A model generated the notes under the pieces. It was not told the DNA's origin. It saw only the letters and a program-made list of their open reading frames with translations, and made no database searches. Of a stretch of DNA of 64,000 nucleotides, positions 9,310 through 35,282 are shown in pieces. The stretch's first letter is position 1; every line of letters starts with the position of its first letter. The position numbers and the translations under genes were made by a program. Source of the stretch: Escherichia phage JY01; sequence record OR995200.1, one strand, 5' to 3'.

Positions 9310-10897
<1,588 letters not shown>

Positions 10898-10919
10898 AAT
10901 AAAATGGGCCTTGCGGCCC
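10898..10919 (-). terminator. GNRA-tetraloop hairpin with U-rich tail between nrdB and denA
   Basis: GGGCC-GCAA-GGCCC then AUUUUAUU, immediately before the denA ATG. Confidence 0.45.
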
Positions 10920-10924
10920 ACTCC

Positions 10925-12103
10925 TTAAAAGTATTTTTTAAAACTCATCATAACTTTATCATCAACATCATTATCAATCTGTGCAACAAGATAAGATGAC
11001 AGTTCTACTTCTTGTGGCGCGGATTGAACATTATCAGAATTAAGGTATTCACGAATCCAAGGATATGGATGTTTAACCGGAGCATCGGTAATTGGGCATG
11101 GAAGACCACACTGTTTCATACGAGATACAGTTAAATAATCAATAAAGCTCCACATGCTATTTGTATTTAATCCAGGAACATCGCCATCTTTAAATAAATG
11201 AACTGCCCAATCTTTTTCTTGGCGGTTAACTTCCATGAAAATATCAACTGCTTCTTGTTCACACTCTTGAGCAATTTTAACCCATTCATCACCATCAGTG
11301 CCAAGTTGGAGCTGACGAATAATATACTGGGTGCCTTTAAGGTGGAGTTGTTCGTCTCGAGCAATGAATTTCATAATCTTCGCATTACCTTCCATGATTT
11401 CCATATTTTTATGGAAGTTGAAAGTACATGCAAAGGATACATAAAAACGAATAGCTTCCAGGGCATTGATAACATGAAGGCAGAGATAAAGCGACTTCAT
11501 CAATGCATATTTACATTCTTCCACATGCATAAGACTATTTGAATATGCATCTAAATCATATTCATTTTCGGAAAAACATTTAAAAATTTCTTTTGCATTT
11601 TCCCATTCGCGCGTCTTAACCAGAACATCATCATAATAATGACCAATAGATTCAGCACGTTTCATGATAGCTTTATCTAATACAATCTCATCAAATACCT
11701 TTGACGGATCAGTATAAAGATTTCGCATAATATGAGTGTATGAACGACTGTGAATAGTTTCACTAAAAGTCCATGTAGCAACCCATGTATCAAGACTTGG
11801 GTCTGAAATTAACGACATAAGTACAGCAGACGGTGCACGACCCTGAATGCTATCTAGAAGTGATTGATACTTCAGGTTATTAGTAAAAATATCTTGCTGA
11901 TATTGAGGAAGCTTGTTAAATTGCGCAGCATCCATCATTAAGTTTACTTCTTCAGGACGCCAGAAAAATGATAATTGCTTTTCGGTTAAATCTTCAAAAA
12001 CTTTATGGCGTTGAATATCATAACGCGCAATACCAAGACCTGAACCAAAAAACATAGGTTCTTTTAAAACATCAACTGGATTTGTATTAAAAACTGTGCT
12101 CAT
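10925..12103 (-). CDS. nrdB: ribonucleotide reductase small subunit (intronless)
   Basis: 392-aa continuous ORF with no interruption; adjacent to nrdA. Confidence 0.9.
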   Translation of the reverse strand: MSTVFNTNPVDVLKEPMFFGSGLGIARYDIQRHKVFEDLTEKQLSFFWRPEEVNLMMDAAQFNKLPQYQQDIFTNNLKYQSLLDSIQGRAPSAVLMSLISDPSLDTWVATWTFSETIHSRSYTHIMRNLYTDPSKVFDEIVLDKAIMKRAESIGHYYDDVLVKTREWENAKEIFKCFSENEYDLDAYSNSLMHVEECKYALMKSLYLCLHVINALEAIRFYVSFACTFNFHKNMEIMEGNAKIMKFIARDEQLHLKGTQYIIRQLQLGTDGDEWVKIAQECEQEAVDIFMEVNRQEKDWAVHLFKDGDVPGLNTNSMWSFIDYLTVSRMKQCGLPCPITDAPVKHPYPWIREYLNSDNVQSAPQEVELSSYLVAQIDNDVDDKVMMSFKKYF

Positions 12104-12154
12104 AAATTTTCCACTTAGTTAATAGACAGTGACTCGTCCATGAGTCAAATTATA

Positions 12155-14419
12155 TCATAATTTACAGGATGAACAATCTTCAGCTTTTGGAGTTTCTATT
12201 TCATAATCATCAGTACCAGAACCATCACGGGTATTATGATAATAGAAATTTTTTCCGCCAAAATACCAAAAATACAAAAGGTCATCAATCATTATTGACA
12301 TTGGAACCTTTCCTTTTGGAAAAATCTGTGGGTCATAGTATGTATTCGCCGAAGCTGATTGACAAACCCATTTCAGCATAATAGCTACCTGCGTGAGATA
12401 AGGTTTATTACCTTTCTTAGCTAATTTCCATGTATAATCATAGAGGTCTATGTTATGCTCAATATTGGGCACGACTTGATTAAAGGAGCCCTCTTTTGAT
12501 TCTTTAACAGAGACTGGTCCACGTGGAGGCTCGATACCGTTTGTACTGTTAGAAACTTGGGAAGATGACTCACATGGCATAAGTGCTGATAATGTGCTAT
12601 TACGGATGCCAAAGAGCTTAAGGTCTTCCCGCAGCGACGACCAGTCACAAACGTATTTTGGAGCTGCGATTTGGTCAATCTTTTTATTGTACCAGTCGAT
12701 AGGTAATTCGCCTCGAGACCAACGAGTGTCTGAATAATATTCGCAAGGTCCTTTTTCTTTGGCGAGCTTAATGGATGCTTTAATGAGTCCATACTGTAAT
12801 CTCTCAAATAGTTCATGTGTTAAATCGTTAGCATCTTCATAAGAAGCAAAGTTACTTGCCAGCCAAGCTGCATAGTTGGTAACACCTACACCGAGGTTAC
12901 GACGCTTTTTAGCTTTTTCTGCTTCAGGAACTGGATATCCTTGGTAATCCAAAAGATTATCAAGAGCACGAACTTGGACTTCTGCCAATTCATTAATTTT
13001 ATCTTGGTCTTGCCAGTCAAAATTATCCAGTACGAATGCAGAGAGAGTACACAATCCAATTTCAGCATCGGGGCTATTCACATCATTTGTTGGAATAGCA
13101 ATTTCACAGCACAAGTTACTCTGACGAATAGGTGCTTTTTCACGAATAAACGGAGTATAGTTATTCGTATTATCAATGAACTGTACATAAATCCTTGCTG
13201 TTCCTGAACGTTCAGTCATGAGCAATTCAAATAGTTCACGGGCTTTAATACGTTTTTTACGAATATTAGGGTCTTTTTCTGCTGCTTCGTATAATTCACG
13301 GAAACGGTCTTGGTCTTTAAAATAAGAATAATAAAGCTCGCCACCCATTTCATGCGGACTGAACAAAGTAATGTAATCGTTCTTTCCGAATCGTTCCATC
13401 ATCAAATCATTCAGCTGAACACCATAATCCATATGACGAATACGGTTTTCTTCAACACCTTTGTTATTTTTTAGAACGAGAAGATTTTCAACTTCCAAAT
13501 GCCAAATAGGATAATAAGCAGTAGCAGCGCCGCCACGAATTCCACCCTGTGAGCATGATTTAACAGCAGTCTGAAAATGTTTCCAAAAAGGAATAACACC
13601 AGTATGGCGGACTTCACCCATGCCAATCTTAGAACCTTCGGCACGAATCATACCAACGTTAATACCAATTCCAGCGCGTTTAGAGATATATTCAACAATT
13701 GAAGCTGAAGCCTTATTAATAGACTTCAGCGAATCACCTGCCTCAATAACAACACATGAACTAAACTGTCGAGTCGGAGTACGACAACCAGCCATAATAG
13801 GAGTTGGTAATGAAATCTGTCGAGTAGATACTGCTTCATAAAAACGAATAACATGTTTTAATCTATCAACAGGTTCATCTTGATGCAGTGCCATTCCAAT
13901 AGTCATAAATGCAAACTGCGGAGTTTCATAAATTTGACCAGTGGTTTTATCTTTAACTAGATATTTTTCTTTTAATTGCATCGCACCGGAATAAGTAAAT
14001 TCCATATCCCGCTCGTGCTTAATTTTTGATTCTAAAAATGTAATTTCTTCTGCTGAATATTTTGACAATAATTCAGGGTCATATTTACCTTCATTTACAC
14101 AGTAAGAAATATGGTCAATAAATGAACGTGGTTCATACTGCCCATAAACATGCTTACGAAGAGCAAACATTAAACAGCGTGCAGCTACATATTGATAATC
14201 AGGTTCTTCAACCGAAATAGAATTCGCAGCGGCCTTAATGACAATAGTCTGAATATCATCAGTTGTCATTCCATCACGGAGATAAGATTTAATATTTTCA
14301 TATAATTCATAAGGATCTACTGATGTTCCTTCAGCTGCCCAAGATAAAACTTTAATAATTTTTTGTGGGTCAAAGCTCTGAGAAACACCACTACTTTTGA
14401 TAACATTAATTAATTGCAT
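12155..14419 (-). CDS. nrdA: ribonucleotide reductase large subunit
   Basis: 754 aa, same length as T4 NrdA; class I RNR catalytic subunit. Confidence 0.95.
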   Translation of the reverse strand: MQLINVIKSSGVSQSFDPQKIIKVLSWAAEGTSVDPYELYENIKSYLRDGMTTDDIQTIVIKAAANSISVEEPDYQYVAARCLMFALRKHVYGQYEPRSFIDHISYCVNEGKYDPELLSKYSAEEITFLESKIKHERDMEFTYSGAMQLKEKYLVKDKTTGQIYETPQFAFMTIGMALHQDEPVDRLKHVIRFYEAVSTRQISLPTPIMAGCRTPTRQFSSCVVIEAGDSLKSINKASASIVEYISKRAGIGINVGMIRAEGSKIGMGEVRHTGVIPFWKHFQTAVKSCSQGGIRGGAATAYYPIWHLEVENLLVLKNNKGVEENRIRHMDYGVQLNDLMMERFGKNDYITLFSPHEMGGELYYSYFKDQDRFRELYEAAEKDPNIRKKRIKARELFELLMTERSGTARIYVQFIDNTNNYTPFIREKAPIRQSNLCCEIAIPTNDVNSPDAEIGLCTLSAFVLDNFDWQDQDKINELAEVQVRALDNLLDYQGYPVPEAEKAKKRRNLGVGVTNYAAWLASNFASYEDANDLTHELFERLQYGLIKASIKLAKEKGPCEYYSDTRWSRGELPIDWYNKKIDQIAAPKYVCDWSSLREDLKLFGIRNSTLSALMPCESSSQVSNSTNGIEPPRGPVSVKESKEGSFNQVVPNIEHNIDLYDYTWKLAKKGNKPYLTQVAIMLKWVCQSASANTYYDPQIFPKGKVPMSIMIDDLLYFWYFGGKNFYYHNTRDGSGTDDYEIETPKAEDCSSCKL

Positions 14420-18545: not shown

Positions 18546-18571
18546 CCGTTTTGTGAAAAAATTTTTTGAAA

Positions 18572-18596
18572 TAAAAAAGGGGACCTCTAGGGTCCC
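18572..18596 (-). terminator. intrinsic terminator after gene 32
   Basis: Hairpin GGGGACCCUAGAGGUCCCC followed by UUUUUU on the minus-strand transcript. Confidence 0.65.
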
Positions 18597-18619
18597 CAAT
18601 TAATTAGTAATATAATCTA

Positions 18620-27614: not shown

Positions 27615-31737
<4,123 letters not shown>

Positions 31738-35223: not shown

Positions 35224-35249
35224 CGTTTTGTGAAAAAAATTTTTGAAAT

Positions 35250-35276
35250 AAAAAAAGGGAGAGCCGAGGCTCTCCC
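35250..35276 (-). terminator. intrinsic terminator after gene 52 / motA.1
   Basis: Hairpin GGGAGAGCC-UCG-GCUCUCCC followed by UUUUUUU. Confidence 0.65.
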
Positions 35277-35282
35277 TAAAAA

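Follow-up and report, generated by a model that had tools for sequence, protein, structure and literature searches.

The nrdB-denA junction of phage JY01

The DNA considered here is a 64,000-nt stretch of Escherichia phage JY01 (sequence record OR995200.1), referred to below as the window. It belongs to a Tequatrovirus: the 1.8 kb around the junction between nrdB, which encodes the small subunit of ribonucleotide reductase, and denA, which encodes endonuclease II (EndoII), share 99.9% identity with Shigella phage SfPhi01 and 93.6% with T4; the gene order nrdA, nrdB, denA, rnlA is the same as in T4, and the nrdB-denA junction of T4 is identical to that of the window. In this junction, a Shine-Dalgarno (SD) element and the denA start codon lie on opposite sides of a hairpin, an arrangement that probably makes it a split ribosome-binding site (RBS) bridged by RNA structure, of the kind described for T4 genes 38 and 25. 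Its parts, in window coordinates, are:

10925-12103, minus strand: nrdB, ribonucleotide reductase small subunit, 392 aa (assigned from the open reading frame list, identity to SfPhi01 and T4, and the T4 annotation)
10927-10925, minus strand: nrdB stop codon UAA; the gene ends AAA UAC UUU UAA
10921-10927, minus strand: UAAGGAG, the nrdB stop fused to the SD of denA, a 7-nt complement to the 3' end of 16S rRNA
10924-10921, minus strand: GGAG, the core of the denA SD (read from the sequence)
10905-10920, minus strand: hairpin U-GGGCC-GCAA-GGCCC-A, five G-C pairs plus a closing U-A pair (from folding and covariation)
10919-10915 and 10910-10906, minus strand: hairpin arms GGGCC and GGCCC, with the GNRA loop GCAA at 10914-10911
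10920 and 10905, minus strand: flanking U-A pair; the segment AUUUUAUU occupies 10905-10898 (read from the sequence)
10898-10904, minus strand: UUUUAUU, the purine-poor tail from the hairpin to the AUG, which holds no SD (read from the sequence)
10487-10897, minus strand: denA, endonuclease II, a GIY-YIG protein of 136 aa; AUG at 10897-10895

An earlier sequence-only reading had described the order GGAG, GGGCC-GCAA-GGCCC hairpin with a GNRA loop, AUUUUAUU, denA AUG, and this is exact to the base on the minus strand. It had also placed the sole SD about 23 nt from the AUG, or about 9 nt away once the hairpin forms; both figures are borne out, except that the SD is really the 7-nt UAAGGAG, stop codon included. 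Counted from GGAG, the distance to the AUG is 23 nt on linear RNA, 9 nt with the 14-nt hairpin core looped out, and 7 nt when the U10920-A10905 pair is looped out too. The predicted duplex of UAAGGAG with ACCUCCUUA has an energy of -8.5 kcal/mol, and that of the tail +2.8 kcal/mol.

The structure itself is predicted with little ambiguity. In ViennaRNA, the 14-nt core folds at -10.0 kcal/mol, the 16-mer at -11.6 kcal/mol, a 36-nt segment at -16.4 kcal/mol (z = -3.96; 0/200 shuffles are as stable), and a 44-nt segment at -18.0 kcal/mol (z = -4.2). RNA folding had been proposed as a check on the hairpin, and the outcome is clear: it is predicted in every context tried, with a pair probability of ~1.0, and equally in all 27 sequence variants described below. 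Only one SD-like run lies near the AUG: in T4-type phages, and in these only, a 4-nt AAGG spans the loop and the 3' arm, 11 nt before the AUG. This run, the sole exception to the lack of a nearby SD, is buried within the hairpin and is not conserved in other lineages.

Conservation of the hairpin and of its flanks

A set of 66 loci in which nrdB immediately precedes denA, gathered from viral and metagenome collections and GenBank phages, reduces to 27 distinct junctions; the genera named in the records are Tequatrovirus, Mosigvirus, Kagamiyamavirus, Gelderlandvirus, Winklervirus, Kanagawavirus, Marfavirus, Gaprivervirus, and Muldoonvirus. Every variant (27/27) holds a GC stem of 4-7 bp. UUCG is the loop of 22/27, the T4 type has GCAA or GUAA, and UUUG, UUAG, and CUUGA occur once each; UUCG and GNRA loops together account for 24/27. 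In a MAFFT alignment of the 27 junctions, 89% of the helix cells are paired and five of the seven pairs show changes on both sides, with one position occurring as G-C, C-G, A-U, and G-U. The covariation score of 0.44 compares with 0.19 ± 0.03 for shuffled alignments, none of which attains it (0/500), and with at most 0.26 for controls in which the partners were slid. The helix is kept with compensatory changes across the 27 junctions; the hairpin structure is under selection.

All 27 variants show the same order: a stop codon overlapping the SD, the hairpin, a purine-poor tail of 6-10 nt, and the AUG. The SD-like run is present in each, begins at the stop codon or 1-2 nt from it, and is separated from the stem by -1 to 4 nt, usually 0-1. 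The 6-10-nt tail after the hairpin lacks an SD in all 27: its duplex energy with the anti-SD has a median of +2.2 kcal/mol and is never under -0.1, whereas the run upstream of the hairpin spans -9.0 to -2.9 kcal/mol around a median of -5.6. These tail energies leave denA without an alternative SD. The aligned spacing between SD and AUG is 20-26 nt on linear RNA and 3-11 nt, with a median of 6, when the hairpin is removed. The optimum for aligned spacing is reportedly ~5 nt, and function is said to be lost beyond ~13-15 nt. Winklervirus X20 is instructive: its 7-bp stem stretches the linear spacing to 26 nt, yet the effective spacing is still 8 nt, from which it follows that the lengths of the flanks, not the total length, are conserved.

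Where does denA start?

The RefSeq record of T4 (NC_000866.4, 137517-137951) would make the hairpin coding sequence: there denA is 435 nt long and encodes 144 aa from a GUG inside the hairpin, at 10921-10919 in the window. This start does give the longest open reading frame. The GUG at 10921 is not conserved, however: an in-frame upstream start exists in only 4/27 variants, and in-frame stops occur in others. It also has no spacer to the SD, because its first base is the last G of that SD. Protein conservation begins at MKEIA, homologs keep the N-terminus MKEIATEY from the AUG at 10897, and the crystallized EndoII (the construct in PDB entry 2WSH) starts at MKEIATEY after its tag. The denA start is the AUG at 10897; that the hairpin is coding sequence deserves next to no credence, and the GUG start is probably a longest-ORF (open reading frame) annotation artefact. 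A different denA start, one of the outcomes that would have told against the sequence-only reading, was not found.

An SD-like run and a hairpin behind a stop codon are reminiscent of recoding signals. Read-through or frameshifting to yield a NrdB-DenA fusion was therefore considered as well and rejected, because junctions of 30, 32, 33, 34, and 38 nt change the relative frame of the two genes between phages. The record of phage Muldoon (locus L087, 480-482) places a 3-nt denA ribosome_binding_site in the 3' arm of the hairpin.

Comparison with known split sites and other hairpins

In T4 genes 38 and 25, a hairpin between the SD and the AUG shortens their distance from 22 to 5 nt and from 27 to 11 nt, respectively; destabilizing mutations lower initiation at these split sites, and reporter and dimethyl sulfate (DMS) data back the gene 25 case (PMC3014915). 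denA is absent from this review by Uzan and Miller (PMC3014915). The sequence features expected of such a site are present at denA: the sole SD is distant, a stable hairpin intervenes, the looped-out spacing falls within the functional range (5-11 nt in the precedents), no SD lies at a canonical distance, and the structure is conserved with compensatory changes.

Gene 38 is the closest match. Read from T4, the gene 37-38 junction is UAAGGAG-A-GGGGC-UUCG-GCCCUUC-UAAAU-AUG; as at denA, the upstream UAA lies within UAAGGAG and is followed by a GC stem with a tetraloop, a short AU-rich tail, and the AUG, and it is this shared layout that leads us to read the denA site as a third split site. Counted as in the literature, the spacing falls from 23 to 7 nt at denA and from 22 to 5 nt at gene 38, which places denA between the proven genes 38 and 25; the predicted stabilities of 44-nt segments are also close (-18.0 vs -16.7 kcal/mol). 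The denA junction of CC31-like (Karamvirus-type) phages, UAAGGAGAGGGCCUUCGGGCCCUUCUGUUAUG, is almost identical in sequence to the gene 38 junction of T4. The two sites differ in their setting: gene 38 belongs to a late tail-fiber pair and has a UUCG loop, whereas denA belongs to an early/middle nucleotide-metabolism pair and has GCAA in the T4 type; furthermore, the gene 38 site is backed by mutations, the denA site by sequence comparison. Gene 25 resembles denA in that a far upstream SD (27 nt) is brought to 11 nt by a hairpin (PMC3014915). Its hairpin, however, is AU-rich and weak (-7.4 kcal/mol, z = -1.1), lies inside the coding sequence of gene 26, and is confined to close T-even phages (PMC3014915), while the denA hairpin is intergenic, GC-rich, and present in many genera. 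The window itself carries a T2-type gene 38, and at its gene 37-38 junction (30929-30960) the hairpin is followed by GAGG-UUUAU-AUG with a normal SD; the gene 37-38 hairpin is thus common to T4 (locus L097, 1120-1152) and the window, but the downstream gene and the position of the SD differ.

How unusual is this order of elements? At the GC-rich hairpins of the window, the usual order is stop, hairpin, SD, AUG; in a directed scan of the window, denA is the sole case in which the SD precedes a GC hairpin that precedes the start codon. Examples with the SD 3' of the stem, from a scan of all GC-rich hairpins in the window, are:

1616-1597, minus strand
39729-39712, minus strand
37075-37060, minus strand
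40693-40679, minus strand
30929-30948, plus strand

These examples are intercistronic, four of them have C(UUCG)G loops, the SD and AUG follow directly, and there is no U tract; their heuristic terminator scores range from about -42 to -66, and they look like structural punctuation between cistrons, not terminators. Intercistronic T4 hairpins with C(UUCG)G or GNRA loops share with denA a GC stem, a stable tetraloop, and an intergenic location, and in the T4 type denA adds a short U tract; in the T4 nrd region, a weak mobE terminator terminates only 30-50% (PMC2790892). denA is set apart from the other hairpins of the window by the position of its SD, 5' and not 3' of the stem, and its U tract is not conserved. 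The PeSL (promoter-early stem-loop) cassettes of RB49/phi1 likewise bring an intergenic GGGG...CCCC-type stem-loop into a T4-like genome, but there the stem-loop is followed by the SD and start codon, carries a strong sigma-70 promoter, and sits in hyperplastic regions (PMC2839356), while denA lacks a promoter and belongs to a conserved core operon; a PeSL cassette was rejected, as no promoter-like match was seen in or near the junction. A search of Rfam returned nothing near threshold at the junction, the top match being L20_leader, whose 24.7 bits fall short of the gathering score, 58.7.

Two lineages supply natural controls with the canonical order. In Krischvirus MIZ4, the hairpin is followed by GAGGAAAGGAUA-AUG, and the junction is longer and free of the split-site constraint. 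In Citrobacter phage CkP1 (locus L094, 61-123), the junction is remodelled: a hairpin AGAGGG-UGUAUG-CCCUCU precedes GAGG, which 6 nt separate from an AUG placed two codons upstream of the usual start; here, too, the junction is longer and lacks the constraint, and the order is hairpin, SD, AUG. In more distant genera, denA follows other genes, overlapping them or lying a few bases away.

Transcription through the junction and the terminator question

The sequence-only reading had taken the same hairpin for an intrinsic terminator of nrdB, and this part of it fared less well. In its favor, the T4-type stem with UUUUAUU scores d = +24.7 on a d'Aubenton-Carafa-type heuristic, which falls among the values of the window's clear terminators, and the hairpin is annotated as a terminator in two GenBank records. 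On the other side, the score is positive (d > 0) in only 10/27 variants: the U tract is missing from Mosigvirus (-43) and from the Serratia phages PS2 and Muldoon (-38, tail GUAAAGCU), all of which keep the hairpin and the SD. Phages without the U tract still keep both the hairpin and the SD before it, so termination is not the conserved role of this element. An automated terminator scan did not list the site, because the stem is extended by G-U pairs into the U run, and no mapped T4 3' ends at the junction were found in the literature searched. A terminator for antisense transcripts was also considered and rejected: what comes after the stem on the plus strand is CUCCUUAAAAG, not a U tract.

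Does denA RNA arise without crossing the hairpin? A search of nrdB for the TGCTT MotA box, the late TATAAATA, and an early-type match revealed no denA promoter, and a generic promoter scan gave no more than shuffles did; with no promoter motif within nrdB, all denA mRNA must pass through the hairpin. In RNA-seq of T4 at 5 min, mean wild-type reads are 41,621 for nrdB (1,765 nt with its intron), 6,028 for denA (435 nt), and 23,842 for rnlA (1,125 nt) (PMC6024815, Table S1). From the same table, the denA/nrdB read density computes to 0.59 in the wild type and 0.59-0.93 over six conditions, or 0.39-0.62 with the nrdB intron excluded. The abundance of denA RNA without a promoter of its own and the small share of variants with a positive score indicate that termination is at best leaky and lineage-specific. 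In the T4 type, the hairpin with UUUUAUU is probably also a leaky terminator or a protector of the nrdB mRNA 3' end, as an add-on. Unlike in T4, the nrd region of the window (10925-14419) has no group I intron in nrdB and neither mobE nor nrdB.1 between nrdA and nrdB, which are separated by a spacer of 51 nt (12104-12154).

How could the junction work?

In the mechanism that we propose, denA would be read from transcripts running through nrdB. On linear mRNA, UAAGGAG, 23 nt from the AUG, would be too distant for initiation; the 14-16-nt tetraloop hairpin would put SD and AUG at the foot of the helix, ~7-9 nt apart, and a 30S subunit could then hold the SD and set the AUG in the P site. With just 5 nt between stop and stem, every ribosome that ends nrdB would have to melt the hairpin, and the stable tetraloop would let it refold fast. 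UAAGGAG may in addition recapture ribosomes right after their termination. We infer this use by 30S subunits from features that can be read directly in the sequences, namely the anatomy of the junction, its conservation and covariation, its spacing, and the gene 38 layout. The sequence-only reading had suggested that termination and structure-dependent initiation are coupled here; the same features give good comparative support to the initiation half, and the termination half would apply, if at all, to a leaky activity of some lineages. We consider a split, bridged RBS the probable function of the junction, though with appreciable doubt.

Several observations weigh against it. The extreme effective spacings, 3 and 11 nt, fall at the margin of the useful range. 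The predicted fold pairs the purine-rich SD weakly with the U-rich tail, leaving the SD with an unpaired probability of 0.21 in the T4 type and a median of 0.34 over the variants, and this pairing could leave room for mild repression. Yersinia phage fHe-Yen9-01 (locus L028, ~1495-1505) lacks the entire junction through a precise deletion: nrdB ends UAC UUA UGA, and its UUAUGA overlaps the denA AUG (AUGA); the device is therefore dispensable, although denA itself is non-essential in the laboratory. No earlier mention or test of a split site at denA was found in the literature, although key older T4 papers were not covered and a prior mention is possible. Finally, with the nrdB stop 27 nt upstream of the AUG, comparative data cannot tell de novo 30S binding from re-initiation, two routes that we regard as compatible. 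In two relatives of fHe-Yen9-01, TG1 and phiR1-RT, the match to it sets in only at about the denA start codon; TG1 (locus L026) retains the hairpin, with an unusual 5-nt loop, CUUGA.

Could the junction serve something else? The hairpin might chiefly attenuate transcription and stabilize the nrdB 3' end, a role ascribed to ordinary intercistronic tetraloop hairpins of T4, with denA translated mainly by re-initiation and the SD only retaining ribosomes, without any bridging. The score of the T4-type stem, the two terminator annotations, and a denA/nrdB density of 0.59-0.93, which fits some loss at the junction, all suit such a role, as do the stop inside the SD 27 nt from the AUG, the AUGA of fHe-Yen9-01 (a classic coupling overlap), and the overlap of denA with its upstream gene in distant phages. 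However, a terminator-like tail is confined to 10/27 variants, and PS2, Muldoon, and Mosigvirus keep hairpin and SD without it; moreover, this explanation does not account for an SD abutting the stem, the lack of an SD after the hairpin, and the conserved flank lengths, and other hairpins of the same genome precede a normal SD. We therefore hold it to be unlikely, though worth keeping in mind. Alternatively, the hairpin could be a negative element that limits a potentially harmful nuclease by keeping the SD distant, by SD-tail pairing, or by both. EndoII is a nuclease required in small amounts; the minimum-free-energy stem does extend over GGAG by G-U and A-U pairs (-16.4 vs -10 to -11.6 kcal/mol), and the unpaired probability of the SD is low in several variants. 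But the extension lacks conservation, with pair 9-26 open in 13/27, the working gene 38 site is predicted with the same extension, and the SD would sit 20-26 nt away if there were no hairpin, a geometry on which the hairpin can only improve. Repression as the main function thus appears improbable.

Two T4 regulators offer a further explanation, in which the hairpin presents either GGAG as a site for the RegB endoribonuclease or the AU-rich AUG region as a RegA operator, for shut-off of denA. A GGAG in the SD of an early gene is a RegB target, and the denA start region UUUUAUUAUGAAA (10889-10905) fits 9/12 positions of the RegA operator AAUUGUUAUGUAA obtained by SELEX (PMC3014915). Strong RegB sites, however, follow the pattern GG*AGRAYARAA and are A-rich on their 3' side; at denA, GGAG is followed by UGGGCCG of the GC stem, and GGAG itself is found in only 6/27 variants. 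A RegB site was rejected for want of the A-rich context after GGAG. RegA sites are unstructured and carry a 5' poly(A). The involvement of either protein is unlikely, and that one of them explains the hairpin very much so. The split RBS can also be extended into a three-way coupling device, in which a ribosome ending nrdB would keep the terminator hairpin from forming behind RNA polymerase, melt the bridge, and hand a 30S subunit to an SD that works only once the hairpin has refolded; to this version we assign a chance only slightly smaller than that of attenuation with re-initiation, and thus still a low one.

Other observations

DenA-like GIY-YIG genes on viral or metagenome contigs of ~3-158 kb (loci L054-L058 and L081-L084, at ~1501-1866, or 657-1022 in L081) carry four in-frame TAG codons per copy, at conserved positions, and no TAA or TGA; these contigs appear to belong to phages in which TAG is a sense codon. 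Elsewhere in the window, at 18554-18597 and 35231-35277, two strong, bidirectional-looking terminators with different stems share a near-identical 25-nt flank, TGAAAAAA(A)TTTTT(T)GAAATAAAAAA, and may represent a repeated terminator cassette.

Significance

The junction is of practical use for annotation. Automatic gene and RBS callers misplace the denA start or its RBS, as the GUG of RefSeq T4 and the Muldoon RBS in the stem attest, and terminator predictors call a terminator what, to judge from RNA-seq, is a structure mostly read through. Should the three-way coupling hold, translation of nrdB would set the amount of denA RNA, and EndoII output would be tied stoichiometrically to the translation of ribonucleotide reductase, linking host-DNA breakdown to dNTP (deoxynucleoside triphosphate) synthesis.

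The split SD sites cited as proven cases of structure-enhanced translation initiation in bacteria number only two, those of T4 genes 38 and 25. The denA case shows conservation and covariation in many T4-like genera and comes with natural controls of its own: one isolate in which the junction is deleted and two lineages with the canonical order. If it is a split site, the junction would be a clean system for asking how the 30S subunit makes room for a helix that separates the SD duplex from the P site, and a third such site would make the split RBS a recurring design in these phages, not a curiosity.

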